NCBI GenBank assembly: GCA_024234875.1
Contig: JACKNM010000016.1
Location: 1 to 64,000 of the forward strand
Source: Ectothiorhodospiraceae bacterium
GTDB lineage: Bacteria > Pseudomonadota > Gammaproteobacteria > HK1
Direction: 5' to 3'
Length of the DNA stretch: 64,000 nt
The first letter of the stretch is position 1. Every line of letters starts with the position of its first letter. The translations under genes and the position numbers were made by a program. Shown one piece after another: positions 28,895 through 51,929 of this stretch. Below the pieces are notes generated by a model. The model worked only from the letters and a program-made list of their open reading frames with translations. It searched no databases and was not told where the DNA came from.

Positions 28895-29686
28895 ATGCGA
28901 AGAGGCTACCATAGGCGGTCACGGCCGGCCGGGGCGGGCGCGGCGGAGGCATCTCCGGCGGTGAGACGATTCTGCGTGGTCAGCGCGACGCGCTCGGGGT
29001 CGAGCGCATTGATGGCCGCGATCGCCGCGGTCCCGGGGGTCTCGCTGCCCAGTCGTCTCGCCCCCGGGTGGGCCGAGGAGCTGCTGAACCCACGATTCGC
29101 CGCCACCTACGCGCGGGCCATCGGCCAGCGCCTCGGCCGGGTGCCGCGCCTTCAGGACTCGCTGGTCGAGGCGTTCTGGGCCGCGAGCGCCGGGGCATCG
29201 GTGGCCGGGTTCAAGCTGATCCTCGGCCAACACCACGACGTCGAGGCGTTTCTGGCCGAGCCCGGCCTCGCGGTCGTCGCGCTGTTGCGCACGGACCTGG
29301 AATCGGCGGTGGCCAGCGCGCTCTGCGCCGAGGTGCGCCAGCACTGGCCGCGAGAGGGTGGACCACAGACGCCCTGGCGGTACGAGGAGCGGATGGCGCC
29401 GCGCGTGCACGCACGCGTGCGCGAGCACCTGTACGCTCGACGCTTGCTCGAGCGGGTCGACGCCGCGGTACGGCTCGAGTACGAGCGCATGGTCACACCC
29501 GACTTCGAGTGCCCCGGGCTCGACACGCTGATCGGTGGCCCGGTGCGCATCGCGCGGCCGCGACCCCCGATTCGCGCCGCCGACTACGTCGAGAACCTGG
29601 ATGCACTGCGTGCGTGCATCGCCGCGGCGCTGGTGGCGGCGGACGTGCCGGCCATCACCGCTGGTCAGTCGGGCCCGGATCGGTGA
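28895..29686 (+). CDS. Stf0-like sulfotransferase family protein
   Basis: This is the in-frame 3' part of tracked ORF 27881..29686. The conserved core begins at FCVVSATRSGSS, which resembles the Stf0 family's N-terminal P-loop-like PAPS-binding motif (cited from memory) used for the family call. The start is either the ATG at 28895 or the GTG at 28953. Confidence 0.5.
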   Translation: MRRGYHRRSRPAGAGAAEASPAVRRFCVVSATRSGSSALMAAIAAVPGVSLPSRLAPGWAEELLNPRFAATYARAIGQRLGRVPRLQDSLVEAFWAASAGASVAGFKLILGQHHDVEAFLAEPGLAVVALLRTDLESAVASALCAEVRQHWPREGGPQTPWRYEERMAPRVHARVREHLYARRLLERVDAAVRLEYERMVTPDFECPGLDTLIGGPVRIARPRPPIRAADYVENLDALRACIAAALVAADVPAITAGQSGPDR

Positions 29687-29746
29687 AGCTCGCGTGATGC
29701 AGCGCCGATGCCCGTTCCCGATACCCGCCACCCGCGGCCCGGTCCG

Positions 29747-31034: not shown

Positions 31035-31164
31035 AACGCGCGCTAACCGACTGAAGAATCGCTCACTCTGGTTGCAAGAGTCGGGAGCGGATGACTATCA
31101 TTCGGGTCAGTTTCCCCCACCGCGCCCGCGCCAGAGGGCGCTCCGCGTGCGTAAGGAGCCGAGA

Positions 31165-32998: not shown

Positions 32999-35900
32999 AT
33001 GACGAGGCTGACACGGGCACCGTTGCGGGTGCGGCTGGCCGCGGTGGCGCAGGCGGTCGGTGAGGCGCTCGCCGCGCGGCGGGGCGCGGTCTCGACCCTC
33101 GCCCTGGCGCTCCCCGGCGTCGCGTTGGCGGGCCCGACCGGCGAGCAGGTCGTCGCCGGCAGCGCGGCGGTCAGTCGCCCGGACGCCCACGGCACCGTCA
33201 TCGACCAGGCCAGCAACCGCGCCGTCATCAACTGGCAGACGTTCTCCGTCGGCGGCAACGAGTACGTCCGCTTCAATCAGCCGGGAACCGCCTCGGTCGC
33301 GCTCAATCGTGTCACCGGTGTCGACGCGTCGCGCATCCTCGGGCGCATGGACGCCAACGGGCGCGTATTCCTGGTCAACCCGCGCGGGGTCTATTTCGGC
33401 CCGGGTGCGCAGGTGGACGTCGGGGCGCTGGTGGCCAGCGCGCACGAGATCAGCAACGAGGACTTCCTCGCCGGACGCTACGTCTTCACCCGCGCCGGTG
33501 ACGGCGCCGATGCCGCCACCGTGGTCAACGCGGGCACCATCACCGCCGCCGACGGCGGCTTCGTGGTGCTGGCGGGCGACTACGTCGAGAACAGTGGCGT
33601 GGTCAGTGCCCGGCTCGGCACGGTGGCGCTCGCCGCCGGTGGGCGCGTGAGCCTCGACGTCGGCGACACCGGGCTCGTCAGCTACGCGGTCGACGAGGCG
33701 ACGGTCAGCGAGCTCGCTGGTGTGCGCAACAGCGGCGAGATCACCGCCGACGGCGGCCGCGTCGTGATGACCGCCAAGGTCGCCGGCGACCTCGTGAGCA
33801 CTGCGGTCAACAACCAGGGGCTGGTGCGGGCGCAAGGCATCGTCGAGCGCAACGGCGAGGTCTGGCTCACCGGGTCCGGTGGCGACGTCGCGCACGGCGG
33901 CACCATCGACGTCTCGGGCCAGGCGGGGCAGGGCGGCGGTGACGTGCGCATCGTCGGCGACCGCAACATCACGCTGGCGCCGGACAGCCGCATCGAGGCG
34001 CGCGGTGACGGCGCTGCGAGCGGCGGTGATGTCCGCGTGGTGGCCGCCCGGACCACCGAGTTCAAGCGCCAGGCGCGGATCGACGTCCAGGGCGGCAACG
34101 ACGGCGGCGCCGGTGGCTTCGTCGAGCTGAGCGGCGAGCACGTGCGCATGCGCGGCGAGCTCGCGCTCGGCAAGGGCGGCACGCTGCTCATCGACCCCGC
34201 CGACATCGTGATTCGCGACGGCGCTTACGGCGGATTCTACGGCGGCGGGCTCGGCGGCTACGGTGGCGACATCTTCTTCGAGCAGGACCTCGAGGCCTTC
34301 GTCGCCGCCGGCAACAACATCGAGCTGGTGGCGACCAACAGCATCACCCTCGAGAACCTGACCGACGACGTGCTCGACCTCACCGGCGCGGGCTCCGGCG
34401 GCAGCATCGCGATGGGCATCGGCATCGGCAGCTTCGCGAGCGCCACCTTCGTGCCGTCCTCGGTCGGCGGCACGATTTCCTTCGCCGACGTCAACGACTC
34501 GCTGCTCGCCGACGCAGCGGTGCGGATGGTGGCCGGCTCCGATGGCCTGAACGGCGCGGGGACGATCCTCATCGGCGACGTCGAGGCGCGCCAGATCTTC
34601 GTCGGCGTCACACCGGGCGGTGCAGCCGGCGCGGCGGCCGTCAGCGCCGGGAACCTCCGCGCGACCAATCCGATCGGCCCGGCCCGGGTGCACGTGTTCG
34701 GCGACGGTGCGGTGACCACCGGCACGCTGACCTCGCTGGGTGCCTCGAGCCTCATCGGCGACGTCGACGTGCAGGTGCACGCCGACAACGGCACCGCGAC
34801 GGTGGGCGACATCAGCGCCACCGTCACCGGTGGGGTGGCCACCGTCGACCTCGTCACCGACGGCGATCTGTCGTTCGGCCGACTCGATGCGAGTGGCACC
34901 GGCGGGGTCTTCGTCATCGGCAGCGTGGTCGGCGGCAACATCAACGGCGGCGCGGTGGACCTCGTGGTGCCGGCTCTGAACGCCGGCAACGTGTCGCTCG
35001 ACCTGTTCAGTGGTGGTGTGACGACGCTGTCGACGATCGGCGCGAGCACGCCCTCGGGCGACATCTCGCTCACCAACCTGTCCGACGGCACGGTGACCCG
35101 GGGCGATCTCTCCGCGACCACCGGCGCGGGCGCCGTCAGCGTGACCGACGACGGTCTGGCCGGGGTGTCGGTGGGGCTCACCGGCGTGGCCGGGGCGGGC
35201 GGCCTGGTCGACGTGCAGTTGCTGAGCGGGCTCGGCAGCATCTCGGCCGGGCGCCAGACCCTGAGCAACGAGGGCGGCGGCACGACCAACCTCACCGCCG
35301 ACGCGCAGGCGATCGGCGCCAGCGTCGACATCGACGGTATCGACGTCACCGATGGCGGATCGGGCGGCTTCACCTTCGACGTCTTCGCCGAGGGCGACGT
35401 CACCATCGCGGTGTCGACGCTGTCGAGCGTCGGCGGCCCGGTCTCCGGCAGCCTCGACTCCGGTCAGGCCACGCTCCAGCTCACCGGCCCGTTCTCGCTC
35501 AGCGGCGAGAGCGTGGGTGTCTCCCTCGGCGGCGCAACGGTCGACGTCGGCGACCTCACCGCGACCGCGAGCGCCGGCGGGGCGAACGTCAGCGCCGGTG
35601 CCGAGGGCAACCTCACCGCCGGCAACGTCACCGCGTCCGGCCAGACCAGCGTGTTCGCGTCGGTGGCCGGTGGATTGACGGTGGCCGGCGATACCGTCGT
35701 CGGGACTGTCGACGTCTCGACGATCGGCGACGACACCCTGACCACCTTCGCCAGCGCCTCCGCCAACGTGTCCGGCGACACGGTGACCATGGGCACGGCG
35801 AGCGTGTTCGCGAGCATGGTGTCCGCGAGCGCCTTCTTCGGCGATGCGAGCGCGACCCTGAACGTCGACGCGGCGACCGCGATCACCGCCGGCAACGTGC

Positions 35901-38900
35901 TGGTCGAGGCCGAGGCGAACCTCTCGAGCGGCAGCGCTGGCGCATTCGCCCTCAGCCACTTCGAGGGGGTCGAAGGCACGACCGACGTCGGCGACGTCAC
36001 CGTGCGCGCCGACGCGATCGGGACCGACGCGAGCGCCATCGCGCGCAATCGCCTGGGTGCACCGTTCGTGCTGCCGCCGGCCGGGCCGACCACGATCCTG
36101 ACCGGCGCGCTGGTCGCCAACGCCGACGCGGTGGCGATCGGCGACGGCTCGATCGGAAACGCCGAGGCGCGTGCGGTGATCGACGTGATGGCGGTCAACG
36201 ACACACCGACGACCATCGATCTCGGTGGCAACACCTCCGCGAGCGCGAACGCGAGCGTCACCCCCGGTGCGCTGCTCCCGACGGCGATGTCGTTCGCCGA
36301 CGCGCTGATCACCATCGGTGCGCCGTCACTCGACGGCCTCGAGGGCGGACTCCCGGCCGCCGATGTCTCCGCCGTCGGTCCGGTCGAGGCCGCCGCGTCG
36401 ACGACGGTCACGAACGCGACGAGTGTCACCGAGGACAGCAGCGCCCAGATCCTGATCCGCGCCGGCGACTCGCCCGGCGGTGGCACCATCGATCTGCAGG
36501 GCGCGGTGACCGCGACCGGCGGCGAGGCCCACATCGAAATCCGCAACGAGACCTCGCTGAACGGCGTCGTGACCCTCGGCGGCGACGTCGTCGCGACCGA
36601 TACCAAGCCCGGCCCGGACGGCCGCGGCGGGCCGGTCGCCCCGAACGTGGACATCAATGCCGGCTTCGGCACGCTGACCACCGGACCGCTGGCGGCGATC
36701 AGCGACACCGACGCCGACGGCGGGCACGTCCGTCTGTTCTCGACCGGTGACATGACGCTGGCCGGCCCGGTCTCCGCGCTCGGCGACGGGACGTCGCTGC
36801 TCGAGGTCATCTCCGGCGGGAACCTCGACTTCGCCGATCTGCTGGCCGAGGGCCTGACCGGCGCGACCCTGGACGTCGATGCGAGCGCCCTCATGTCCGG
36901 GGGACGTGGCGAGGCCAAGGTGCCGACCGGTGGTGTCGGCAACGCCATGTACGACTTCTTCGGCCTCGGCGACATCGCCATCGGGGACCTCTTCGTCAGC
37001 ACACCGTCCGGCAACGCCACCGGCCAGGTGATCGGCGGGGCGGGTGTCGCCCGTGGCGCGGCGAACGCCAGCACCGGGACCGGCCTGGTCATGGTGGTCG
37101 ACGACGCGGTCACGGACCTCGTGGTCGGCACCACCGACGCGAGCTCGACCGGCGGGGTCATGGTCACCGAGACCAGCTCCACCGGCGGGGCGAGCGTGGG
37201 CCGCATGACGCTCTCCGAGGGCGGCGGTGGCGCCATCGACGTCGTGGTGTCGGGAATCGGCGGCCCTTCGGTCGTCGACGGTGTCGACGTGAGCCACACC
37301 GGCACCGGACCGGTGACGGTCGACGTCGGTGGCGACGGGGCCGCGCTCGGCGCGAGCACCATGACGGTCGCGGGTGGGCCCCTCGCGGTGACCGTCGCCG
37401 GTCTGTCCGGGGCGGGTGAGCTCACCGGCAACTTCACCGGCTCGGCGTTCGCGAGCACCCTCGATCTGAGCGGCGCGACCATCGCCTTCGCCGACGTCAC
37501 CCTGACCGGCACCGCGACCACCGCGACCTTCGACGCCTTCGCCGTCGACGCCATCAGCGGCGGCGCGGTGGACGTGGACGGCAAGACGCTCGCCTCGGTG
37601 GCACTGCTCACCACGCCGCCGGGCTCGGTCGGCGACGTCACTGTCGGCGATGTCGCAATCCACGCGAATTCCGACGGCGCCAGGGCCCCGCTCGCGCGCG
37701 CCGACCTCTCGGTCGATGCACCGACGGTGACCCTCGGCACCGTGGTTCTCGATGCGCTGTACGCGTCCCCGATCCCCGGTGAGGCGGTGGCCGACCTGAG
37801 CGTGCAGGCCCTCGACGGGATCACCACCGCCGACGTGACCGTCAACGCGGTCGCGAGCACGCCGGACGCGAATGCCATCGCGCGCGCCCTGAGCGCGATC
37901 GGCTCCGAGGCGGGGGTGACCAAGACCGGCGCGGTCAGCACCACCGCCGACGCCGACGGTGCCTTCGCGCTCGCCGAGGCGGACAACCGCATCGGTAACA
38001 CCGCCGGCAGCGGACCGTTCGGTCCGGCCGAGATCAATACCGGTGGATTGCTCGCTCTCGCGACGGCCGATGCCACCGGTGACGGTGCGAGCGGCGTCGC
38101 CGACGCGACCGCCTCGGTCGAGGTCCTCGGGGTCGACGGGACGCCGATCGCGATCGACCTCGGGGCGGACCCGGCTGCCATCGCGCAGGCGAACGTCGAC
38201 CCGGGCGTGGGGTCGCTCTCGACCGGGGACGCGACCGCCGATGCCACGGTGACGGTCGCCGCGCCCGGGCTGACCAGCGGTCTCGGCGGACGCCCGGATG
38301 CCGACCTGCTCATCCGTGATCTCACCGAGGCGCGGGCCGAGACGTCGGTGAGCGGCGCGGCGGCGGCAACCGAGACCAGTCGGGCCGACGTGCTGTTGCG
38401 TGCGGGCCGCGAGCAGCTCGGCACGGCCATGCAGCTCGACGGCGACGTGCTCGCGACCGGTGGGGACGCGTCGATCACGATCGTCAACGAGTCGGCCTCC
38501 GGCGGCCTGGTGAGTCTCGGCGGCGACGTGCGCGTGACCGACACCCGCCCCGGTGGGCTGGTCGTCGGCGGCGTCGAGATCGATGCCGGGCTCGGTGGAT
38601 TGACGCAGGCGCTCGGCAAGCTCGTCGTCGACGACGATGCCGACGGCGGTCGGGTGCTCCTGCGCGGCGACCAGGACATCGCGCTTCTCGGCGACGTGAC
38701 GGCGATCGGCGGCCCGGCGTTGTTGAGCATCGTCGGCGGCGCGAACGTCGACTTCACGAATCTGACCGCGGATGGCGTCGACGGCGCGACGATCGACGTC
38801 GACGGCGCCGCGACCGTGACCGGTGGCAACATCGCCACCACCGTGGCCAGCGCCGGCCTGGCCGACTATCGAGTTCTCGGTGGCACCGGGCTGCTGATCG

Positions 38901-41900
38901 GTGACGTGCTCGCGACGACGCCGAGTGGGGACGTCAACGGCAGCCTCGGCACCACTGCCGGCACGCTGAATCGTGGTCTGCTGGTGGCGAGCACCGGCGC
39001 CGGGGCCGTGAATCTCACCGAGAGCGGCGACGGCCTGACCGTCGGCAACACCGACGCCACCGCGGCCGGCGGGCTGCTTTCCGTGGACATGGACGCCCGC
39101 GGTCTCGACGCGACGGTCGGTGCGCTGACCCTGGCCAATTCCGGCGCGGTGAACACGCTGGTGGGGATCCGCTCCCTGGGTGGGAACCTCGACGTCGACA
39201 CCGCCACCATCGGCGTGGTCGGCGCCGGCGGCGTGCTCATGGAGCTCGACGTCGGCGCCGCCGGCGGCAGCGTCGCGCTGGCCTCGGCCGATCTCTCGAG
39301 CACCGCCGGAGGCCTCGATCTGCGTCTCGTCGGTGGCAGCGTGGACGGCGGCCCGACCAACCTCACCGCGGACGGTGGCACCATCCACGTGCTGGCCGAC
39401 GCCAGCACCGGTGACGCCATCATCGGCGCGATGAGCGTGCTCGAGAACGGTGGCTCGCTGGTGGACGTGCGCGTCCTCGCGGCCGGCGCGGGTGTCGCCT
39501 CGCACGGTGGTGGCTCGCTCACGAGCGTCGGCGGTGACGCCCAGCTCCTGGTCAGCGGCACCGGTGGCGCGGTGATCGCGTCGCCGCTGTCGATGGACGG
39601 AGAGAACGTGAATCTCCAGATCGACGGCTCGACCGTCGACTTCGGCGATCTCACGCTCACCGGCCTGCAGGCCGTCGACCTCGTGGGCACCGCGGTCGCC
39701 GGGCTTACCGGCGCGACCATCGGCCTGAACGGCGGTCCGGTCGCCCGCGTCGACCTCAACGCCGGCGGGGCGCTGACGGTCGGTGACGTGACGGTCTTCA
39801 GCACCGGTCCGCGTAACGCCGTCGCGTCCGCGGTGGCGCGCGCCCAGCTGATGGGCGACACCGTGGACGCGGGCGTGGTCACGGTGTCGGCGAGCTACGC
39901 CGGCAGTGATCCGAGCGGCGGCGCGACCGCCGAGGCGGACGTCGCGGCGGCGCAGGGCATCACCGTCGGCCACATCACGGTCGACGCGACGGCCGACACC
40001 GCGGGTGGCCTCGCGGTGGCCGACGCCCACAGCTTCGTGCATTCGGCCGGCGGCAACACCACTACCGGTGACATCGGCGTGGCCGCGACCGCCAGCGGCG
40101 CGAATGCGACTGCGATCGCCGACAACCGCGTCGGCGAGACCGGCGGCGCGGTGAGCGGGCCGGTCGTCATTCACACCGGCTCGCTCGGCGCCGACGCGAA
40201 CGCCAGCGCCGAGGGTGACGGCTCCAGCGCCACCGCCATCGGCAACGCCCTGGTCGAGGTCACCCACCTCGACGGCGGCGCGGGCAGCCTGATCGTGAAT
40301 GGCAGCCCGAGCGCGGTCGCGGTGACCAGCGCGGCACCTCCGGTCGGGACACTGACCAGCGCGACCGCCGACTCCGATGCGCGTGTCGTCATCGGTGCAG
40401 GTCCGACCACCCCGGGAACCGACGTGCACGTGGTCGGCGATGCCACTGCCGACGCCATCGCCTCGGCCGGCGGCGCGACGACGCTCGTCGAGACCGGCTT
40501 CGCGCAGGTCTCGGTCCGGACCGGCGGCGAGGCGGGCGGCGTCGCCGCCCGGCTCGACGGCGCCGTGCTGGCGACCGGCCTCGACGCCTCGATCGACATC
40601 CGCAACGACGGCCCACCCGGCGGGGACATCCGCCTCGGCGGCGACGTTCGCGCCACCGACACCCGGGGCGGGGACGGTAGCACCGGCCTGGTGCAGATCG
40701 CCGGCAACGCCGGCGGCATCCATCTCGCGGCCGGAACGTCCATCGTCGACGACGACCCGGACGGTGGACAGGTGTTCATCCAGGCGCTCGGCCCGGTGAA
40801 GCTCGACGGCGCGGTGCAGGCGCTCGGCGGCGGTGCGTCCGCGGTGAACGTGCAGGGTGCCGACGTCGACTTCGCGAGCCTGCTGGCCGAGGGCGGCACC
40901 GGCGCGTCGGTTCACGTCGACGCCACCACCGGCGCGGTGCTCGGTGGGTCGGTCGACGTCCTGGTTCCCGGCGGTGGCAGCGGCCCGGTCGACTATCGGG
41001 TCGACGGCGCCACCGGCGTCAGCATCGGTGACGTCAATGCGCTCACCCCGAGCGGCGACGTTCTCGGTGGCATCGGTGCGTCCGGCGGCAGCGTGAGCCG
41101 CGGCGCGCTATTCGCCGAGACTGGTTCCGGTCAGGTCGACGTGAACGAGAGTGGGGCCGGGATGACGGTCGGGCCGACCGACCTGACCGCGGTCGACGGC
41201 TCACTGCGGCTCGCCATGGTGAGTAGCGGTGGTGACGTCACCGCCGGCCCGATCACCCTGCGCCGCTCCGGTTTCGGCAACACCGACGCGCGGATCACCG
41301 ACGCCGTCGGTCCCGGGGCGGTCGACGTCGCCGGCGTGGACATCTTGGACACCGGCGGCGACGTGGTGCTCGACGTCGACGCCGATGCCGGGCCCGCCAC
41401 CCTCGGTGCGAGCCAGGTCTCGGCCCTCGGCGCGCTCGACGTGATCCTCGGTGGCTTCACCATCGATACCGGGGTGCTGACGTTGTCGACCGACTCCGCC
41501 ACCGGCCGCCTGTCGGCGGCGGGCCGTGGCGGCGACGTCACCATCGCCGGGGTGGACGCCACCTCGGCGGGTGACTTCGACCTCTTCGTCGACGCCACCG
41601 CCGGCGGCTCGGCATCGCTCGGTGCGACCACGTTGAACGCGGTCGGGGCCGATCCGACGGTGGTGGTGGCGGGGTTGGCCGACGCCACGCTGTCCGGTCC
41701 GTTCTCCGGTACCGGCGGGATCTTCTCCCTCGACCTCGACGCCGGTGGTGCCGCGAGCGCCGGCAGCGTCGACCTCTCGGCGCCGACCGCGACCTTCCGT
41801 GCGCGCGGTGACACGGTGGCGCTCGGTGACGTGGCCCTCGACGGCGGCGTCGGTGGTGGGACGCTGACATACGACATCGACGGGGTGAACGCGGTCGCCG

Positions 41901-44900
41901 TCGGCTCGCTGGCCGCGATGACCGCGACTGGTGACATTCTCGGCAGAATCGCCTCGTCGAGCGCAGGTATGAGCCGCGGCGCGCTATTCGCCGAGACTGG
42001 CTCCGGCCAGGTCGACATCGACGAGAGCGGTGCCGGGATCACGGTCGGGGCGACCGATCTGACCGCAGTGGGCGGTCTGCTGCGGCTGTCGATGGTGAGC
42101 AGTGGCGGTGACGTGTCCACCGGGGCGCTGACGCTGCGTCGCTCGGGCGCGGGCACCACCGACGTCCGAGTCACCGACGCGGTCGGTCCCGGGTCAGTCG
42201 ACGTCGCCAGCGTCGACATCGCGGACACCGGCGGCGACGTGCTGCTCCGCCTCGACGCCGACGCCGGGTCTGCCATCCTCGGTGCGAGCCAGGTCTCTGC
42301 GTTCGGGGCGCTCGACGTCGATCTCGACGGCTTCAACATCGACACCGGCGTGCTGACGTTGTCGACCGACTCGGCCACCGGCCTCCTGTCGGCGGTGGGC
42401 GGTGGTGGAGACGTCACCGTCGCCGGGGTGGACGCCACCTCGGCGGGTGACTTCGACCTCTTCGTCGATGCCACGCTGGATGGCTCGGCAGCGCTCGGTG
42501 CGACCACGGTGAGCGCGGTCGGGGCCGATCCGACGGTGGTGGTGGCGGGGTTTGCCGATGCCACGCTGGCCGGCCCGTTCTCGGGCAGCGGCGGCATCTT
42601 CTTCCTCGACCTCGACGCCGGTGGCGCCGCGAGCGCCGGCAGCGTCGACCTCTCGGCGCCGACCGCGACCTTCCGCGCGCGCGGTGGCACCGTGGCGCTC
42701 GGCGACGTCGTGCTCGACGGTGTCGATCGGGTGGAGCTCCGTGGTACCGCGCTCTCGGGACTGACCGCGGGCAACGTGATCGCCTCCGCGCTCACCGACG
42801 CCCGGGTGGAGCTCGACGCCGGCCGCGCCAGCGGCGGGGTGCTCGGCGTCGGTGACCTCACCGTCGTCGCCGAGACCCTGGTCGGTGGCACCCCAGCGGC
42901 CGTGGCGCTGGTGCAGCTCCAGGGTCTGCGCGTCGTCACCGGCGACGCCTTCGTCTCCGCGCACTACGAGACCGGCGCCACCGGCTCGGGTGCGGACGCC
43001 ATCTTCCGCATCGGCGCCGACGACGGCATCACCGTCGGCGACGTGGTGGTGGACGCGTTCTCGCGGGCGTCCGGCAGCATCGCCGATGCCACCGCCGAGA
43101 GTGTCCTCGCCTCGGTCGCCGGGGACACCAAGACCGGCGACATCACGGTGCTCGCCGACGCCTCGGGCCCGGATGCATTCGCCTTCGCCGCGAACGTGAT
43201 TGGTGAGGCGGTCGGCGCCGCGCCGCCCGGTGGCATCAGCATCGTCACCGGGCTGCTGAGCGCGGACGCCGTCGCCACCGCCTTCGGTAACGGCACCAAC
43301 GCCACCGCGCAGGCGGAGTCGCGGGTCGACATCCTCGGCGTCGACGGCGCCGTGATGGACGTCGACCTCGGGTTGGATCCGGCCAGCACCGCGACCGCCA
43401 TCGTGGACCCGGGCGCCGACGTGCTGTCGTCCGGCGACGCCAGCGCCGACGCGACCATCACCATCGCCGCGCCCTCCGTCGCCACCGACGAAGGCGGGCT
43501 GCCGGCCGCGGTGGTGCGGATCCGTGACGCCACCGTGGCCACCGCCGACGCGTCGGTGGTCGGGGCGAGCAGCGCGGTCGAGTCGAGCACCGCCGGCATC
43601 CTGATTCGTGCCGGGCGCGCCGTCGGCGGGGTGTCGCTGCGGATCGACGGCGACGTGCTCGCGACCGCCGACGAGGCGGCCATCGGCATCCTCAACGACA
43701 CCCCGTCGGCCGCCACCGTGCGCCTCCTCGGGGACGTGATCGCGACCGGTGACGAGGCCGGTGTCCGCATCCTCCCCGGGCGGGTCGCGATCCCCGGCTT
43801 CCCGGCGAGCACCGGAGTCGGCGGCAATCTCGACATCCGGGGCACCATCAGCGCGGTGGACCTCGCCTCCGGGGTCGGCACTCTCGGCATCGAGAACATC
43901 GAGGTCGACGCCGGCGTCGGTGGGATCACCGTCGGCGCGGGTGCCAGCATAGTGGACGTCGACCCCGACGGGGCGAGCGTCACCCTGCGCGCAGAAGGCG
44001 ACATCGTGAATGCGGGCGTCGTCAGCGCCAGTGGCGGTGTCGCGCCGAACGACATCGACATCGTCCTCGCCGGTGCCGGAAACAGCCTCTCGGGCGCCGG
44101 CGCCTGGCAGTCGGATCGCATGCGCATCGTCGGCACCGGCGGCAACGACGTGGTGGCCACCACCTCGGTCGAGACGCTGGTGCTCGGCGATCTCCGCGAC
44201 GCGACCCTCGACAACCAGAGCTTCACCGGCCCGTCGCAGTTCGACCTCTTCGGCACCTTCCGCGACGTCGGTATCACCTTCGGCGGCGATGCGACCTGGA
44301 CCACGGCCGCGGCCGGGACCACTCGCCTCGGATCCGGTGGTGGCGCCCCGGGCGCGCGATCGATCATCGCCAACAGCCTGGTGCTCGGCACCGACGGTGC
44401 GCTGGTGATGGAGGGTGTGCAGGTCGACGCCGCCGGGCGCGTCAACCTGCTGTCGGGTGACGCGCTCAAGCTCGCCGACGCGCAGCTGCGCGGGGTGCCG
44501 ATCGATCTGATCGCCGGCGGGGTGCTCGACCTCGACCGCGCGGCGGTGCAGTCCACCGGCGTGGTGACGCTACGTGGCGGCGGCGGCATCCTCGCCGACA
44601 CCGCGAGCATCGACGCCGCGGCAGGCGTCGATGCGTTCACCACCCAGGACGTCGACCTGACCGGCCTGCAGCTCAACGTCACCGGTGCGTTCGTGCTGCA
44701 GACCAACGGCGCGATCACCCTCGACGGCGCGACCATCGCCGCCGATGGTCCGCTCGATCTCCGTGGTGGAACCGGCATCTCGTTCAGCGGCACCGAGCTC
44801 GCGACCACCGGGGCGATGGTGCTGGTCTCGGGCGCCGGGATCTCCGGGGCCGGCTCCGAGCTGCTGGCGACGACCGGCATCGACGTCTTCGCCGCCGGTC

Positions 44901-46057
44901 CGCTGGACCTCGGCGGTGGCAGCGTCGCCACCACGAGCGGGACGACCTCGCTGCGCTCGAACTCCGGCGTGGATCTGGCCGGTGCCTCGGTCGATGCGCC
45001 CGGCGCCCTCGACATCCTCTCCGGTGCGGCGCTGGACCTGAGCGGGGCGACCCTGTCCGCGGGCGATCTGGTGCGGATGCAGTCGGGCGGCCAGGTCTCG
45101 GCCGCCGGCGTCCAGCTGCGCGGTCCCAACGGCATCGACGTCCTCTCCAGCTCCGGCATCGATCTCACCGGAGGCGACATCGACGGCGGGTTCTTCGTCC
45201 GCCTGCAGGCATCGGGCCCGGTGTCACTGGTCAACAGCCGCGTGCGGGCGAATCCGCTGGCGGTGATCACCCCCGGCACCATCTCGATCTCCGGCGCGAC
45301 GATGCAGCTCAACGGTGGCTTGTTGCAGGGTGGCAGCGTCACCAACGGGCCGGCCTCGATCACCCTCGGTGGCGGGACGGTGGCGACGGTGGCAGGGGAC
45401 GGCCCTCTGGTCGACGCCCTGGCCGCGAACGACATTCCCGTGGCCAGCGGCTCGCCGAACTTCGCGGTGGTGTCGCAGGGGGCGGTGAACCTGTCCGAGA
45501 CCACGCTCAATCTCGGCAACGCGGCGAGCTACCTGTGGTTCCAGGGCAGCTCGATCCAGTCCCTGGGCTCGGTGATCAATGCGCCCTCGGCGCTGCTGGT
45601 GCAGTTCGCTCCGAGCGGCGGTGGCAGCACCATCTCGCTGGAGCAGACCGTCGGGGTCGGCGGTGACGTCAACTTCGGCGTGCTCGAGCACATCGACGCG
45701 CTGCCCGACACCCCGGGCACCACCGTGGCCTTCGGCTTCGGCACCGACCCACTCGGCGTCGCCACGCCGTTCGCCGGTGACCTCTTCGTCAGCCAGGACG
45801 GGGCGCTCGACCTCGGGAGCCGCAACCTGGTGCTGCTGAGCGCGGGAGAGGTGTTCGGCGCCGGCGGTGGCACCGGGATCGAGAGCCTCGACATCGCGAG
45901 CAGCGGCCTGGTGCTCTATGTCAACGGGGGCGTGGCGACCGCCTTCGGAGCGGCCGAGGAGTTCGAGACCCCGACCAACGACGAGCTGAACGAGGCTCCG
46001 CCGAGCATCGCGGAACCGGGCACCGGCACGTCCGAAGAAATCCTGAGCTGCAACTGA
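32999..46057 (+). CDS. giant two-partner-secretion exoprotein TpsA (about 4352 aa) with N-terminal TPS/haemagglutination-activity domain and non-FHA Gly/Asp/Thr/Ala/Val-rich repeat body
   Basis: The tracked ORF is 32876..46057. The start is the ATG at 32999 (MTRLTRAPLRVRLAAVAQAV...), which gives an extended TpsA-type signal peptide. The TPS domain is clear (AVINWQTFSVGGNEYVRFNQP...ALNRVTGVDASRILG...GRVFLVNPRGVYFGPGAQVDVGALVAS). The frame stays open for 13 kb, whereas the opposite strand is fragmented. Confidence 0.85.
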   Translation: MTRLTRAPLRVRLAAVAQAVGEALAARRGAVSTLALALPGVALAGPTGEQVVAGSAAVSRPDAHGTVIDQASNRAVINWQTFSVGGNEYVRFNQPGTASVALNRVTGVDASRILGRMDANGRVFLVNPRGVYFGPGAQVDVGALVASAHEISNEDFLAGRYVFTRAGDGADAATVVNAGTITAADGGFVVLAGDYVENSGVVSARLGTVALAAGGRVSLDVGDTGLVSYAVDEATVSELAGVRNSGEITADGGRVVMTAKVAGDLVSTAVNNQGLVRAQGIVERNGEVWLTGSGGDVAHGGTIDVSGQAGQGGGDVRIVGDRNITLAPDSRIEARGDGAASGGDVRVVAARTTEFKRQARIDVQGGNDGGAGGFVELSGEHVRMRGELALGKGGTLLIDPADIVIRDGAYGGFYGGGLGGYGGDIFFEQDLEAFVAAGNNIELVATNSITLENLTDDVLDLTGAGSGGSIAMGIGIGSFASATFVPSSVGGTISFADVNDSLLADAAVRMVAGSDGLNGAGTILIGDVEARQIFVGVTPGGAAGAAAVSAGNLRATNPIGPARVHVFGDGAVTTGTLTSLGASSLIGDVDVQVHADNGTATVGDISATVTGGVATVDLVTDGDLSFGRLDASGTGGVFVIGSVVGGNINGGAVDLVVPALNAGNVSLDLFSGGVTTLSTIGASTPSGDISLTNLSDGTVTRGDLSATTGAGAVSVTDDGLAGVSVGLTGVAGAGGLVDVQLLSGLGSISAGRQTLSNEGGGTTNLTADAQAIGASVDIDGIDVTDGGSGGFTFDVFAEGDVTIAVSTLSSVGGPVSGSLDSGQATLQLTGPFSLSGESVGVSLGGATVDVGDLTATASAGGANVSAGAEGNLTAGNVTASGQTSVFASVAGGLTVAGDTVVGTVDVSTIGDDTLTTFASASANVSGDTVTMGTASVFASMVSASAFFGDASATLNVDAATAITAGNVLVEAEANLSSGSAGAFALSHFEGVEGTTDVGDVTVRADAIGTDASAIARNRLGAPFVLPPAGPTTILTGALVANADAVAIGDGSIGNAEARAVIDVMAVNDTPTTIDLGGNTSASANASVTPGALLPTAMSFADALITIGAPSLDGLEGGLPAADVSAVGPVEAAASTTVTNATSVTEDSSAQILIRAGDSPGGGTIDLQGAVTATGGEAHIEIRNETSLNGVVTLGGDVVATDTKPGPDGRGGPVAPNVDINAGFGTLTTGPLAAISDTDADGGHVRLFSTGDMTLAGPVSALGDGTSLLEVISGGNLDFADLLAEGLTGATLDVDASALMSGGRGEAKVPTGGVGNAMYDFFGLGDIAIGDLFVSTPSGNATGQVIGGAGVARGAANASTGTGLVMVVDDAVTDLVVGTTDASSTGGVMVTETSSTGGASVGRMTLSEGGGGAIDVVVSGIGGPSVVDGVDVSHTGTGPVTVDVGGDGAALGASTMTVAGGPLAVTVAGLSGAGELTGNFTGSAFASTLDLSGATIAFADVTLTGTATTATFDAFAVDAISGGAVDVDGKTLASVALLTTPPGSVGDVTVGDVAIHANSDGARAPLARADLSVDAPTVTLGTVVLDALYASPIPGEAVADLSVQALDGITTADVTVNAVASTPDANAIARALSAIGSEAGVTKTGAVSTTADADGAFALAEADNRIGNTAGSGPFGPAEINTGGLLALATADATGDGASGVADATASVEVLGVDGTPIAIDLGADPAAIAQANVDPGVGSLSTGDATADATVTVAAPGLTSGLGGRPDADLLIRDLTEARAETSVSGAAAATETSRADVLLRAGREQLGTAMQLDGDVLATGGDASITIVNESASGGLVSLGGDVRVTDTRPGGLVVGGVEIDAGLGGLTQALGKLVVDDDADGGRVLLRGDQDIALLGDVTAIGGPALLSIVGGANVDFTNLTADGVDGATIDVDGAATVTGGNIATTVASAGLADYRVLGGTGLLIGDVLATTPSGDVNGSLGTTAGTLNRGLLVASTGAGAVNLTESGDGLTVGNTDATAAGGLLSVDMDARGLDATVGALTLANSGAVNTLVGIRSLGGNLDVDTATIGVVGAGGVLMELDVGAAGGSVALASADLSSTAGGLDLRLVGGSVDGGPTNLTADGGTIHVLADASTGDAIIGAMSVLENGGSLVDVRVLAAGAGVASHGGGSLTSVGGDAQLLVSGTGGAVIASPLSMDGENVNLQIDGSTVDFGDLTLTGLQAVDLVGTAVAGLTGATIGLNGGPVARVDLNAGGALTVGDVTVFSTGPRNAVASAVARAQLMGDTVDAGVVTVSASYAGSDPSGGATAEADVAAAQGITVGHITVDATADTAGGLAVADAHSFVHSAGGNTTTGDIGVAATASGANATAIADNRVGETGGAVSGPVVIHTGSLGADANASAEGDGSSATAIGNALVEVTHLDGGAGSLIVNGSPSAVAVTSAAPPVGTLTSATADSDARVVIGAGPTTPGTDVHVVGDATADAIASAGGATTLVETGFAQVSVRTGGEAGGVAARLDGAVLATGLDASIDIRNDGPPGGDIRLGGDVRATDTRGGDGSTGLVQIAGNAGGIHLAAGTSIVDDDPDGGQVFIQALGPVKLDGAVQALGGGASAVNVQGADVDFASLLAEGGTGASVHVDATTGAVLGGSVDVLVPGGGSGPVDYRVDGATGVSIGDVNALTPSGDVLGGIGASGGSVSRGALFAETGSGQVDVNESGAGMTVGPTDLTAVDGSLRLAMVSSGGDVTAGPITLRRSGFGNTDARITDAVGPGAVDVAGVDILDTGGDVVLDVDADAGPATLGASQVSALGALDVILGGFTIDTGVLTLSTDSATGRLSAAGRGGDVTIAGVDATSAGDFDLFVDATAGGSASLGATTLNAVGADPTVVVAGLADATLSGPFSGTGGIFSLDLDAGGAASAGSVDLSAPTATFRARGDTVALGDVALDGGVGGGTLTYDIDGVNAVAVGSLAAMTATGDILGRIASSSAGMSRGALFAETGSGQVDIDESGAGITVGATDLTAVGGLLRLSMVSSGGDVSTGALTLRRSGAGTTDVRVTDAVGPGSVDVASVDIADTGGDVLLRLDADAGSAILGASQVSAFGALDVDLDGFNIDTGVLTLSTDSATGLLSAVGGGGDVTVAGVDATSAGDFDLFVDATLDGSAALGATTVSAVGADPTVVVAGFADATLAGPFSGSGGIFFLDLDAGGAASAGSVDLSAPTATFRARGGTVALGDVVLDGVDRVELRGTALSGLTAGNVIASALTDARVELDAGRASGGVLGVGDLTVVAETLVGGTPAAVALVQLQGLRVVTGDAFVSAHYETGATGSGADAIFRIGADDGITVGDVVVDAFSRASGSIADATAESVLASVAGDTKTGDITVLADASGPDAFAFAANVIGEAVGAAPPGGISIVTGLLSADAVATAFGNGTNATAQAESRVDILGVDGAVMDVDLGLDPASTATAIVDPGADVLSSGDASADATITIAAPSVATDEGGLPAAVVRIRDATVATADASVVGASSAVESSTAGILIRAGRAVGGVSLRIDGDVLATADEAAIGILNDTPSAATVRLLGDVIATGDEAGVRILPGRVAIPGFPASTGVGGNLDIRGTISAVDLASGVGTLGIENIEVDAGVGGITVGAGASIVDVDPDGASVTLRAEGDIVNAGVVSASGGVAPNDIDIVLAGAGNSLSGAGAWQSDRMRIVGTGGNDVVATTSVETLVLGDLRDATLDNQSFTGPSQFDLFGTFRDVGITFGGDATWTTAAAGTTRLGSGGGAPGARSIIANSLVLGTDGALVMEGVQVDAAGRVNLLSGDALKLADAQLRGVPIDLIAGGVLDLDRAAVQSTGVVTLRGGGGILADTASIDAAAGVDAFTTQDVDLTGLQLNVTGAFVLQTNGAITLDGATIAADGPLDLRGGTGISFSGTELATTGAMVLVSGAGISGAGSELLATTGIDVFAAGPLDLGGGSVATTSGTTSLRSNSGVDLAGASVDAPGALDILSGAALDLSGATLSAGDLVRMQSGGQVSAAGVQLRGPNGIDVLSSSGIDLTGGDIDGGFFVRLQASGPVSLVNSRVRANPLAVITPGTISISGATMQLNGGLLQGGSVTNGPASITLGGGTVATVAGDGPLVDALAANDIPVASGSPNFAVVSQGAVNLSETTLNLGNAASYLWFQGSSIQSLGSVINAPSALLVQFAPSGGGSTISLEQTVGVGGDVNFGVLEHIDALPDTPGTTVAFGFGTDPLGVATPFAGDLFVSQDGALDLGSRNLVLLSAGEVFGAGGGTGIESLDIASSGLVLYVNGGVATAFGAAEEFETPTNDELNEAPPSIAEPGTGTSEEILSCN
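41096..41860 (+). repeat. internal tandem duplication in tpsA, copy 1
   Basis: About 765 nt are nearly identical to 41975-42739 at the nucleotide level. The encoded peptide runs from SRGALFAETGSGQVD to TATFRARGxTVALGDV. The period is about 879 nt. Confidence 0.6.
41975..42739 (+). repeat. internal tandem duplication in tpsA, copy 2
   Basis: See copy 1. Only a few substitutions separate the copies, for example GTTCCGGTCAGGTCGACGT versus GCTCCGGCCAGGTCGACAT. Confidence 0.6.
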
Positions 46058-46746
46058 TGAAGGCCGAGACAATGCAACGAACGGGACGCGTCGCGGTGCT
46101 GGCGCTGGCTCTGGGGCTGCTCGGCGCCGCCGGCGCGGCGCAGGCCCAGGGCGCGGCCGGGACGGTCAATCAGGCGCGCGGGCAGGTCGTGGCGGCGACC
46201 GCGGACGGCCAGTTCCGAGCCCTCGCGCAGGGCTCGACGGTCCATTCGGGCGACACCATCAACACCGGGCCGGGCAGCTATGTGAAGGTCGGGTTCTCCG
46301 ACGGGAGCTCGGTGTACCTGCGCCCCGGCACCCGCTTCCGGGTCGACGAGTTCGCCGACGGCGGTGAGAAGGAGAAGGAGAAGGACCGCAGCTTCTTCAG
46401 CCTGCTGAAGGGTGGGCTGCGATACGTCACCGGGCTCATCGGGCGGCGCAATCGCGATGCCTTCCGGCTCTCCTCGCCGGTCGCCACCATCGGTATCCGT
46501 GGCACCGACTTCGTCGCCCGCCTGTGCCTCGGAGACTGCCTCGGACCGGACGGGCTCTACACCCAGACCAACGAGGGGGTCATTCTGGTGAGCGGCGGCG
46601 GGGCCGAGATCACCTCCCCGGCCGGGCAGTTCTCCTACGTGTGCCCGGGCTGCGTTCCCGAGCCCATCCAGGCGCAGCCGGCCGAGTTCCAGATCGAGAC
46701 CTATCCGGGTGGCGACACCCAGGAAGAGCCGGAGTGTCCGGGCTGA
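46057..46746 (+). CDS. secreted FecR-domain protein
   Basis: 229 aa. Its ATG overlaps the tpsA stop (TGATG). It has a signal peptide (RVAVLALALGLLGAAGAAQA) and a FecR-like core (GTVNQARGQVVA...GSTVHSGDTINTGPGSYVKVGFSDGSSVYLRPGTRFRV). The C-terminus is Cys-containing (CPGCVPEP...ECPG). Confidence 0.6.
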   Translation: MKAETMQRTGRVAVLALALGLLGAAGAAQAQGAAGTVNQARGQVVAATADGQFRALAQGSTVHSGDTINTGPGSYVKVGFSDGSSVYLRPGTRFRVDEFADGGEKEKEKDRSFFSLLKGGLRYVTGLIGRRNRDAFRLSSPVATIGIRGTDFVARLCLGDCLGPDGLYTQTNEGVILVSGGGAEITSPAGQFSYVCPGCVPEPIQAQPAEFQIETYPGGDTQEEPECPG

Positions 46747-47536
46747 CCGGGCGCGAGCGCGTCGGGCCGGGGTCGGAAGGGTCGCGCTCGCCGGCGGCGG
46801 GTTGAGCGCGACTGTCGCGAACGCGCGGAACCCCCTCGGCTACGGCCGACTGGTGCCGTTCGAGCGTGAGCGGCACGGGGCGCTCGGGCTCGACCCGGGT
46901 GCGCCGGCGCGATTCGCCCGGCGTTTGCACGCCATCGTCATCACCGTGGACGAGTTCCTCGTCGCCGCGCGCCAGTACGCCATCATGTTCACGCGCGATC
47001 CCGATACCGCGGCGTACGTGCCGGTCGCGGTCACCGGCCTCGTGCCCGGGGAGAATCGCATCCTCACCGCCGATGGTGCCTGGCCGGCCGCCGCCTACGT
47101 CCCCGCCTACGTGCGCCGTTATCCCTTCTACGCGGTGCCGCGCAGCGGCGCCCGCGCGCCCGACGTGCTGGTGTGCGTGGACGAGGAGGCGCTGTGCCTG
47201 GGCGAGGCGCCGTTGCTCGAGGCCGACGGGCGCCCGGGTGGAGCGTGGGCCGAGCGCGAGTCGCTGGTGCGCGAGTTCGAGCGCGCCTGGCGTCACACCC
47301 GAGCCTTCGTCGATGCCGTCGCCCGGCTCGACGTGATCCGCCCGGTGGAGGCCCACGCCCACCCCGCGGACGGATCCGTGCATCGACTGCGCAATCTCTA
47401 CCGCGTCGACGAGGCCCGACTCAACGCGCTCGAGGGAAGGGCGCTCAAGGCACTGATGCAGGTCGGGGCGCTGTCGCGGGTCTACGCGCACCTGATGTCG
47501 ATGGACAACCTCGCCCGCCTGCTCGAGCCGCGCTGA
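46709..47536 (+). CDS. SapC-family protein
   Basis: The ORF track starts at 46709. The conserved SapC-like N-terminus (RLVPFERERHGALGLDPGAPARFARRLHAIVITVDEFLVAARQYAIMF) suggests the real start is a downstream in-frame TTG around 46802. The start is uncertain. Confidence 0.55.
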   Translation: MATPRKSRSVRADRARARRAGVGRVALAGGGLSATVANARNPLGYGRLVPFERERHGALGLDPGAPARFARRLHAIVITVDEFLVAARQYAIMFTRDPDTAAYVPVAVTGLVPGENRILTADGAWPAAAYVPAYVRRYPFYAVPRSGARAPDVLVCVDEEALCLGEAPLLEADGRPGGAWAERESLVREFERAWRHTRAFVDAVARLDVIRPVEAHAHPADGSVHRLRNLYRVDEARLNALEGRALKALMQVGALSRVYAHLMSMDNLARLLEPR

Positions 47537-47548
47537 ACCCGACATCCG

Positions 47549-48963
47549 GTGCCCGATTCCAGCGCCACCTCCGGCCGTCTCCCCACCCGCCCGGTGTCGC
47601 TGCTCGGGCTCGACCTGGTGCCGAGGGCGTCGGTCCCGGGCGCACGCTGGCCGGCGCTTCCGGACTTCCCGGGGGCGCTGATGCTCGCGCTGCAGTTCCA
47701 GCTCGAGCGCACCGAGCGGTGGTCTCCCGAGGCGCTGCGCGCGGCGCAGCTCCGAGAGCTCGGGGACCTGTTGCGCCACGCGGTCGAGACGGTGCCCCAC
47801 TACCGCGCGCGCAAGGCGCTGTACGCGCCGGAGGGTGACGGCGCGCTCGCCGAGGCCCAGCTCGCCCGGCTCCCCGTCCTGCAGCGCGCCGAGGTCCAGG
47901 CCCTCGGGGCGGCGCTGCACAGCGCGCGGGTCCCGGCCGAGCACGGCCCGAGCGCGACCCTGCGCACCTCGGGCTCGACCGGGGCGCCGGTCGAGGTCCT
48001 GGTGACCCACCTGGCGACCGCGTTCAACGCCGCCGTGGTGCTCCGCGACCACCTCTGGCACCGACGCGACCCGACCGGGAAGCTCGCCACGATGCTCAAC
48101 CGGATCGCGCCGCCGGCGCCGAGCTGGGGGGCGCCGTTCGACACCCTGCTCGACACCGGGCCGCTGGTCTCCTACGACGTGCGGCTCCCGATCGACGACC
48201 AGGCGCGGTGGCTCGCTCGCGAGAATCCGACCTACCTGCTGACCTACGCGAGCAACGCCCGAGCCCTCGCCCGCCACTGCATCGAGCACCAGATCGCGGT
48301 GCCCGCGCTGCGCCAGGTCCGGAGCATGGGCGAGGTGGCGCGCGAGGATCTCCCCGCGCTCGCGCTGCACGCCTGGGGCGCGAGCGTGGTCGACGCCTAC
48401 AGTGCGCAGGAGGTCGGCGTGCTGGCCCTGCAATGCCCCGAGCACGGGACCTACCACCTGCAATGCGAGCAGTCGCTGGTCGAGGTGCTGGCCCCGGATG
48501 GCCGGCCCTGCCGGCCGGGCGAGGTCGGGCGGGTGGTGGTGACCCCGTTGCGCAACTGGGCGATGCCGCTGGTGCGCTACGCGCTGCTCGACCACGCCGA
48601 GGTGGCGCCGCCATGCCCCTGCGGCCGAGGTCTGCCCGGTCTTCGGCGCATTGTCGGGCGGCGGCGCAACATGTTGCGGTTCCCCGACGGGCGCAGCGCC
48701 TGGCCGAGCTTTCCCGAGTCGGTCTGGGAGGGGATCGAGGGCTACGGCCGTGTCCAGATCGTGCAGCTGGCGGCGGACACCCTGCGCGTTCGGCTCGAGC
48801 GCGATCGGCCGCTCGAGCCGGCACAGATGGCGGCCCTGACGCGGCGACTGACCGCGCGCATGGGGTATCCGTTTCGCGTCGAGGTCGAGGTGGTGCGGGA
48901 GCTGCCGCTGCCGGGCGGCGGCAAGTTCGAGGACTTCGTCGGCCTCGACGACGAGGGTGAGCG

Positions 48964-48967
<4 letters not shown>
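47549..48967 (+). CDS. PaaK/CapK-like adenylate-forming ligase (phenylacetate-CoA ligase / coenzyme F390 synthetase superfamily)
   Basis: 472 aa. It has the TSGSTGAP AMP-binding motif. The overall layout is typical of PaaK-like acyl-AMP ligases, which lack the long ANL C-terminal domain. Confidence 0.6.

Positions 48968-51929
<2,962 letters not shown>

Follow-up and report, generated by a model that had tools for sequence, protein, structure and literature searches.

A two-partner secretion locus with a coupled FecR-like gene and paired C-terminal cysteines: a candidate three-partner variant of type Vb secretion

Gene content and boundaries of the locus

The 64,000-nt stretch analysed here (the window; positions 1 to 64,000 of contig JACKNM010000016.1 from an Ectothiorhodospiraceae bacterium) carries a two-partner secretion (TPS, type Vb) locus in which tpsB, encoding an Omp85-type transporter, and tpsA, encoding a giant exoprotein, are followed by genes for a small secreted FecR-domain protein (the FecR-like protein), a SapC-family protein and a PaaK/CapK-like adenylate-forming ligase (Table 1). 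TpsA and the FecR-like protein both end in a tail with a cysteine, and these paired C-terminal cysteines, which recur in related loci, are the strongest signal in our data. They, and a similarity of the FecR-like protein to the retention module of LapA-like adhesins (below), are absent from a first-pass annotation of the same sequence, whose gene identities (giant TpsA, FecR-domain protein, SapC and PaaK-like ligase) were all matched by our profile searches.

TpsB is identified as a type Vb transporter by matches to POTRA_2 (3.7e-21) and ShlB (5.6e-21), both over their cut-offs, and TpsA as a type Vb exoprotein by a PF05860 TPS domain (3.8e-36, residues 88–345) together with the position of its gene directly 3′ of tpsB. 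Read as the longest open reading frame (ORF), TpsA comprises 4393 residues, with G, A, V, T and D prominent in its composition; the true starts are likely ATG 31165 for tpsB and ATG 32999 for tpsA. G + C content in this region of the window is 72%. Within tpsA are internal repeats: two 300-nt copies with 78% identity are separated by 876 nt, and a 111-nt unit occurs four times at spacings of 2–3 kb (window positions 36489–43748 and 41039–42214). They indicate a modular β-helix built by duplication.

The tpsA stop codon (46055–46057) and the ATG of the fecR-like gene (46057–46059) overlap as TGATG, 12 nt lie between the sapC stop and the ligase start at GTG 47549, and the ligase TGA shares GTGA at 48964–48967 with the GTG of the next gene, ORF6, as the first-pass annotation had described. 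Its statement that sapC overlaps or abuts the fecR-like gene proved incorrect, the apparent overlap having arisen because the longest ORF (GTG 46709) was taken. The deposited SapC starts at TTG 46802 and its homologues begin at a conserved P-x-GY motif; the real gap is ~55 nt, which resembles the 31–59 nt gaps in L090 and L091 (comparison contigs are numbered L001–L174). Two of the four proteins encoded 3′ of tpsA, the FecR-like protein and ORF6, have signal peptides, in agreement with the earlier count. A sequence scan, which is weak evidence on transcription, found a sole promoter-like site within 28–47.9 kb, 5′ of tpsB, and no terminator-like site within 45.5–52.5 kb, thus none after tpsA.

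The boundaries of the locus emerge from comparison with contig L007, which is collinear with the window over genes for MeaB, a glyoxalase, Aminotran_3, Grx-rhodanese, SIMPL, ORF6, leuA, a Trypsin_2 protease and more, and which lacks the 28.9–49.0 kb segment: only a 57-residue ORF separates SIMPL from ORF6 in L007, versus ~20 kb in the window. The window holds a ~20 kb inserted block, 28.9–49.0 kb, that moves as a unit. Because L007 keeps ORF6-leuA without the TPS block, and because related loci lack ORF6, this gene is not a member of the module. Indeed, none of the 160 ligase- or FecR-seeded loci described below has an ORF6 homologue, and homologues ~50% identical occur as stand-alone genes in many genomes. 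Of the four-gene module put forward in the first-pass annotation, fecR, sapC and the ligase stand as real, recurrent neighbours; ORF6 membership, and with it the four-gene unit, is ruled out by the synteny with L007 and the absence from related loci. ORF6 adjoins the ligase gene and is possibly co-transcribed with it. The ORF6 family consists of ~390-residue secreted or lipoprotein-like proteins, ~50% identical across many complete genomes; it adjoins leuA in the window and in L007, and no Pfam or NCBIfam model matched it.

The real unit consists of the GT1-like glycosyltransferase, tpsB, tpsA, fecR-like, sapC and ligase genes. The functional block reaches upstream to the GT1-like gene, and perhaps includes the sulfotransferase-like ORF at its left end. 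The GT1-like protein matches EryCIII-like_C at 4e-5, under the Pfam cut-off, and has homologues in L090 (51% identity, in the same place 5′ of tpsB), L080 (between fecR and the ligase), L092 and L156. The codon-position GC pattern of the sulfotransferase-like ORF shows coding on the + strand, and its product has an N-terminal RSGSS motif and a marginal Sulfotransfer_3 match (E = 0.08). This ORF lies inside the segment missing from L007 and has no homologue in the related loci.

Table 1 Coordinates of the features discussed, in the window unless a comparison contig is named
Feature	Position	Strand	Remarks
Sulfotransferase-like ORF (weak)	28961..29686	+	Left end of inserted block; membership uncertain
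GT1-like (GT-B fold) glycosyltransferase	29708..30946	+	Recurrent accessory gene
Promoter-like site	31072..31101	+	TTGCAA-18-TATCAT in lower-GC spacer 5′ of tpsB; consensus match only
tpsB, Omp85-type transporter	31165..32826	+	Longest ORF 31072-32826; signal peptide begins at ATG 31165
tpsA, giant β-helical exoprotein	32999..46057	+	Longest ORF from 32876
Codon of sole TpsA Cys	46049..46051	+	Position -2, ...EEILSCN (stop)
Small secreted FecR-domain / retention-module-like protein	46057..46746	+	229 residues, signal peptide
Codon of C-terminal Cys of FecR-like protein	46735..46737	+	...EEPECPG (stop)
sapC	46802..47536	+	Cytoplasmic SapC-family protein; deposited protein 244 residues, start TTG 46802
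PaaK/CapK-like adenylate-forming ligase	47549..48967	+	Cytoplasmic; annotated GTG start 47549
ORF6	48964..50127	+	387 residues, signal peptide; backbone gene, right boundary of inserted block
leuA	Directly after ORF6		
Slam-like system loci	L001 7115-14996; L003 6979-13508; L005 7178-14285		Gallionella, Nitrosomonadales and Burkholderiales metagenome-assembled genomes

The TpsB–TpsA–FecR core and its terminal cysteines

Related loci were collected with ligase, small FecR and SapC seeds. A genome scan with the ligase profile gave 80 loci, all from metagenome-assembled genomes (MAGs), which were analysed by ORF-level phmmer and family clustering; a metagenome scan with small FecR proteins only gave 80 further loci and is unbiased for accessory genes. 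The neighbour counts are minimum values, as tblastn and phmmer do not detect all members of divergent families (Slam, GT41 and FecR) in short contigs. In the FecR-seeded set the gene order is TpsB-TpsA-FecR wherever enough upstream sequence exists, with TpsA and TpsB each detected in 17 of the 80 loci, many of the contigs being short. TPS genes lie within 10 kb of the ligase in ~12–14 of the 80 ligase-seeded loci, and a small FecR gene is found directly 3′ of tpsA in L019, L031, L045, L080 and L085. The coupling of tpsA and fecR recurs as well, with overlaps of 4–13 nt in L080, L091 and L174. Dozens of loci have a small FecR gene after tpsA, bearing out the earlier suggestion that the genes 3′ of tpsA are no chance neighbours, and a full-database search returned 15,621 FecR relatives at E ≤ 1e-3.

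Accessory genes were counted in the ~17 non-Slam, TPS-type FecR-seeded loci with at least 5 kb of downstream sequence. The ligase was found in 3–4 of these, SapC in 2, GT1 in 1 and a CHASE2-cyclase in 5, while a sulfotransferase, often accompanied by APS kinase, AhpD-like and dienelactone-hydrolase-like (DLH) genes, was present in 4–5. The invariant core is TpsB-TpsA-small FecR protein; around it varies a cassette made up mostly of cytoplasmic enzymes, in which SapC and the ligase recur yet are optional. A TPS locus type with a cysteine-ended exoprotein and a cysteine-ended FecR-like protein is widespread and, apparently, undescribed.

The window TpsA contains exactly one cysteine in its 4393 residues, at position -2. 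A cysteine lies within the last five residues of all TpsAs with a FecR gene directly 3′ (36/36) and of 62 of 64 small FecR proteins, against a background of 36/520 other called proteins (6.9%); the binomial p values, ~1e-42 for TpsA and ~1e-69 for FecR, ignore shared ancestry. The sequences behind these counts are only 30–55% identical. Among cluster representatives sampled independently, from a search of 1.84 billion, a terminal cysteine was present in 11/12 single-FecR-domain proteins (217–335 residues) and in 4/5 two- or three-domain FecR proteins (439–706 residues), but not in P0408, a 1082-residue protein of different architecture. Because tandem FecR proteins have the cysteine tail, it is not confined to the single-domain form; P0362, P0365, P0366 and P0375, with two or three tandem FecR domains in 470–706 residues, end in cysteine plus 2–4 residues. 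The tails of the two partners also fall into matching classes: TpsA ...YCN occurs with FecR ...DCEVR, ...AQC[ST] with ...ECKM, and ...GVCH with ...KTCN.

Cysteine parity points in the same direction. The mature TpsAs have odd numbers of cysteines in 26/33 cases, the remaining cysteines forming close pairs distant from the C-terminus, and the small FecR proteins have 1, 3 or 5 in 56/64. Because the counts are mostly odd, one thiol would be left unpaired in each protein, and from this conservation and parity we infer a disulfide between the two tails. FecR proteins of a second type of locus, which is associated with Slam (below), are lipoprotein-like and mostly without a terminal cysteine, so a role specific to TPS loci fits.

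The FecR-like protein itself matches PF04773 at 45.6 bits (cut-off 24, E 1e-11) and has a cleavable signal peptide. Its family profile matches PDB 5ix9 over residues 33–93 (E = 2e-6), and the NCBIfam model retention_LapA (NF033682) matches 7/7 of the small FecR proteins tested, at best with 1.2e-10. The 5ix9 structure shows the RIN domain at the N-terminus of MpIBP, a Marinomonas adhesin; this domain is a periplasmic β-sandwich that was proposed to be too large for the TolC-like pore and so to retain the adhesin (PMC5550230); it has also served as the template for the LapA retention module (10.1101/198937).

We lean towards a reading in which the C-terminus of TpsA is tied by an intermolecular disulfide to the FecR-like protein as a periplasmic stopper. 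The locus would then encode a three-partner variant of two-partner (type Vb) secretion. TpsB would export the giant TpsA, while the gene coupled to tpsA would yield a small Sec-exported protein with a FecR-type β domain. TpsA and the FecR-like protein would each end in a flexible tail bearing one unpaired cysteine, and DsbA-type oxidation in the periplasm would join the two. With the disordered TpsA tail spanning the TpsB pore, the folded FecR-like domain would be too big to enter the pore and would act as the stopper that holds TpsA at the cell surface, possibly while docked on the POTRA domains. HMW1, HxuA and CdrA are anchored by an intramolecular C-terminal disulfide, of which such a mechanism would be the counterpart in trans.

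Several points weigh against this disulfide-linked stopper. The best retention_LapA score, 41.8 bits, is below the NCBI cut-off of 50, and the match may reflect only the β fold shared by all FecR domains. The FecR-like fold is unconfirmed because the single-sequence AlphaFold model failed, with a predicted local distance difference test (pLDDT) score of 39.6 that makes it unusable. The terminal-cysteine statistics are inflated by the common ancestry of the loci. Even cysteine counts occur in 7/33 TpsAs and 8/64 FecR proteins, and gene starts and signal peptides were only approximated in the parity counts. The terminal cysteines could, in addition, serve other chemistry, such as lipidation, metal binding or homodimerisation, the stopper accounts for neither SapC nor the ligase, and some loci carry neighbours that hint at a signalling role.

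These neighbours are CHASE2-adenylate/guanylate cyclase genes (~750 residues), which flank TpsB-TpsA-FecR in L094, L098, L108, L146 and L159 and thereby hint at a link to cyclic-nucleotide signalling; GGDEF-EAL and methyl-accepting chemotaxis protein (MCP) genes lie near others. In FecR-type anti-sigma factors PF04773 serves as the periplasmic sensor, and the FecR-like protein might accordingly sense a signal or the state of secretion and relay it to, for example, a CHASE2 cyclase or a sigma factor, much as the first-pass annotation had offered as its regulatory alternative. That alternative fits the window poorly. With its cleavable signal peptide, and with neither an N-terminal cytoplasmic anti-sigma domain nor a transmembrane helix, the protein does not qualify as a FecR anti-sigma factor. 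Moreover, the island contains no extracytoplasmic function (ECF) sigma factor, TonB-dependent transducer or CHASE2 gene; all genes between 28.9 and 49 kb are accounted for, and they are the sulfotransferase-like, GT1, tpsB, tpsA, fecR, sapC and ligase genes only. Sensing would also leave the terminal unpaired cysteines of TpsA and the FecR protein unexplained, and we consider it improbable.

The other chemistry could take the form of a shared sorting tag, with the terminal cysteines as sites of S-lipidation, of a link to the envelope or of homodimer disulfides. Both proteins have the same kind of tail, cysteine plus 0–4 residues, and the multi-domain FecR proteins share it; moreover, LuxE, a relative of PaaK, acylates a near-C-terminal cysteine. 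Against this, no candidate modifying enzyme is present in all loci, known C-terminal sorting signals typically include a hydrophobic segment, which is missing from these tails, and the strict gene pairing and odd cysteine counts are most simply met by a heterodimer. A sorting tag is, in our judgement, the least probable of the explanations weighed here.

SapC, the ligase and the accessory cassette

SapC matches PF07277 over profile positions 2–220 of 220 (183 bits versus a cut-off of 28.9, E 7e-54) and has no signal peptide. Its AlphaFold model has a pLDDT of 93, and no structural neighbour of this model was found in the PDB. In the loci where it occurs, sapC keeps its place: it lies directly 3′ of fecR in L089/L090 and L091, and the FecR-SapC pair is also found in L093, L096, L103, L166 and L174. 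The closest SapC homologues, retrieved in SapC-seeded loci, sit in the architecture of the window. SapC homologues were found in none of the 80 ligase-seeded loci. A more distant SapC lies in L173 beside ATP-binding cassette (ABC) and membrane fusion protein (MFP) genes of a type I system.

The arrangement around sapC recurs in differing chromosomal settings. L089 and L090 read GT1-TpsB-TpsA-FecR-SapC-ligase-AMP-binding enzyme, with the metagenomic L090 holding all six shared genes in window order at 47–55% identity, between rplT and uvrB. L091 has ligase-TpsB-TpsA-FecR-SapC-u362 between dnaE and accA, L092 has TpsA and TpsB on one strand and SapC-u362-GT1 on the opposite strand, and L174 reads TpsB-TpsA-FecR-SapC-u362, its SapC being 36% identical to that of the window. 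Because it is found in these differing settings, the block is viewed as a functional unit. The gene set fecR-sapC-paaK-orf that the first-pass annotation had proposed to look for thus recurs with TPS genes in its first three members (L089/L090 and L091) and not in ORF6.

The protein termed u362 (361–362 residues) is usually encoded after SapC, in the place of the ligase (L091 10812–11900, L092 5342–6427, L174 7743–8831; also L093, L103 and L166). Its invariant motif, G-x-PR-x-GGSYLT, resembles the 3′-phosphoadenosine-5′-phosphosulfate (PAPS)-binding loop of sulfotransferases, and no Pfam or PDB match was found. A relationship between u362 and ORF6 was considered and rejected, as phmmer gave no match between them.

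The ligase lacks a signal peptide and belongs to a family with >1,500 matches at 40–50% identity. Its AMP-binding match is just under the Pfam cut-off. The family profile nevertheless matches PaaK-like PDB structures across the whole enzyme at 5e-29 to 8e-23, and homologues carry Pfam CapK_C. The SGS of the TSGSTG P-loop and P147 are invariant, the flanking T/G show ~90% conservation and K459 shows at least 90%. The score against the PaaK equivalog TIGR02155, 35.9 bits, is far from the cut-off of 646. By its sequence, the enzyme is a member of the PaaK-like/CapK-like clade of adenylate-forming (ANL) enzymes. The closest solved relatives, PaaK, the NatL2-type 6siw and AjiA1 (6wuq), have small aromatic acids as substrates; a further PaaK-like ligase of known structure is the Bacteroides protein 4r1l. 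Specific to the clade are four cysteines, C296, C321, C356 and C358, which are invariant in 20 homologues and in part belong to a C-P-C-GRGLP motif. A metal site may be formed by them, and we know of none described for PaaK.

By analogy with HMW1C, the GT1-like enzyme, SapC and the ligase, all cytoplasmic, would most likely tailor the exoprotein or make its ligand before export, a role that sulfotransferases, APS kinase and other enzymes would fill elsewhere. Tailoring could also be the main business of the locus: in this maturation scheme, the ligase would, with SapC, activate a carboxylate and attach it to TpsA or the FecR-like protein before export, and the FecR-like protein would be a helper. 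The recurrence of the ligase and SapC with TPS and FecR genes (L089/L090, L091 and the ~12–14 ligase-seeded loci) speaks for it, as do the intact catalytic motifs of the ligase, the further cytoplasmic tailoring enzymes that recur in the islands (GT1, GT4, sulfotransferase and APS kinase) and the precedent of cytoplasmic glycosylation of HMW1 by HMW1C. Slam-like loci link the ligase to FecR-domain lipoproteins as well, and in a neighbour-joining tree the TPS- and Slam-linked ligases are interleaved; the tree is star-like, too weak to date or count transfers. However, ligase and SapC are both missing from the majority of long-flanked FecR-seeded TpsB-TpsA-FecR loci, so these are not required for the core function. 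There is also no carrier protein or transferase, nor a residue that can be named as target, the closest solved ligase relatives use small aromatic acids, and the ligase family also occurs in ~19 loci between Lys/Orn decarboxylase and ornithine-cyclodeaminase-like (OCD-like) genes. Maturation as the central function is possible, if on balance unlikely.

A composite of this scheme and the disulfide-linked stopper may also be considered. It would place the locus in a widespread, hitherto unrecognized three-partner class of type V systems with disulfide-linked C-termini, in which the SapC/ligase cassette would put a new post-translational mark on the cysteine tails or the exoprotein and so control anchoring or release; in this full form we rate it as doubtful, about on a par with sensing.

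Three other contexts of the ligase and its neighbours were observed. In a second conserved system, a Slam-like outer-membrane protein (tetratricopeptide repeat (TPR) + SlipAM) is accompanied by a FecR-domain lipoprotein of 470–2315 residues without a terminal cysteine, the ligase, and TPR/GT41 (Table 1). In L015 and L018, two tandem ligase genes (at ~10 kb) are directly preceded by a LapG-like gene (transglutaminase-like cysteine protease) and a LapD-like gene (HD-GYP), next to a Slam-like gene; these labels were given by eye and are unconfirmed with Pfam. The ~19 loci mentioned above, from Burkholderiales MAGs (L024–L061), contain metG, mrp, a Lys/Orn decarboxylase, two to three tandem ligases and an OCD-like gene, a context that suggests small-molecule metabolism.

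A further cassette characterizes Rhodocyclales-type TPS-FecR loci (L016, L019, L051, L086, L105, L111, L123 and L150), in which a fixed set of sulfotransferase, APS kinase, AhpD-like and dienelactone-hydrolase-like genes, often with methyltransferase, GT4 and BKACE/GNAT genes, precedes the ligase. This cassette suggests sulfated or glycosylated products.

Comparison with known systems

Open-access full-text literature yielded nothing on FecR-domain or SapC genes linked to TPS loci. The remark in the first-pass annotation that classical descriptions of TPS loci lack both held up, as a 2017 TPS review mentions neither (zero occurrences). The known surface anchors of TpsA proteins are few, HMW1, HxuA and CdrA, and all consist of an intramolecular disulfide. 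Should the proposed mechanism be correct, a stopper joined in trans would be a new solution to anchoring, one that connects the retention plugs of type I adhesins with type Vb secretion. It would also supply a function for thousands of "FecR domain-containing" proteins that lack annotation, and for the neighbouring "filamentous haemagglutinin" genes, mostly from uncultured Proteobacteria. SapC provides a confidently modelled fold and recurs in association with exporters of giant surface proteins, and the PaaK/CapK-like ligase clade tracks FecR-domain proteins across two outer-membrane export routes, TPS and Slam-like.

A variant of type Vb secretion that includes a third, periplasmic partner is the classification that fits the system best. 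Among its closest parallels are HMW1A/B/C of Haemophilus influenzae and HxuA, which share with it a TpsB and a TpsA, a cysteine-dependent C-terminus held in the periplasm or pore, and cytoplasmic tailoring enzymes in the locus. HMW1 and HxuA are TpsAs with a C-terminal disulfide anchor (PMC5422565), formed in HMW1 by Cys1518 and Cys1528, and HMW1C is the cytoplasmic glycosyltransferase of HMW1 and its third partner (PMC3983070). Whereas HMW1 and HxuA use an intramolecular cysteine pair, the window TpsA has its single cysteine at -2 and so no two-cysteine loop of the HMW1/HxuA/CdrA type, and the periplasmic part would be supplied in trans; the GT41 enzyme HMW1C contrasts with the GT1-like protein, SapC and PaaK-like ligase of the window.

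In CdrA of Pseudomonas aeruginosa, a "cysteine hook" holds the TpsA in the TpsB barrel and LapG releases it. C-terminal cysteine chemistry would be common to CdrA/CdrB and the window locus, but the hook is intramolecular in CdrA, and the window contains no LapG or LapD genes. The retention module of the RTX adhesins LapA and MpIBP resembles the window FecR-like protein over ~60 residues. That module, however, is the N-terminus of the adhesin itself, which is exported by a type I system via a TolC-like pore and has a LapG site, whereas the FecR-like protein is a separate, Sec-exported product of a type Vb locus.

The individual components likewise depart from their better known relatives. FecR and PupR anti-sigma factors have PF04773 in common with the window protein, which instead has a signal peptide and a cysteine-ended tail. 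PaaK-like ANL ligases share the P-loop and the C-terminal lysine with the window ligase, but its clade is found in outer-membrane export loci rather than in phenylacetate catabolism. Finally, sapC of Campylobacter fetus lies 5′ of the sapDEF type I genes for the S-layer protein. The SapC family and the export of a giant surface protein are common to both, but in the window and at least eight other loci SapC follows a TPS/FecR pair.

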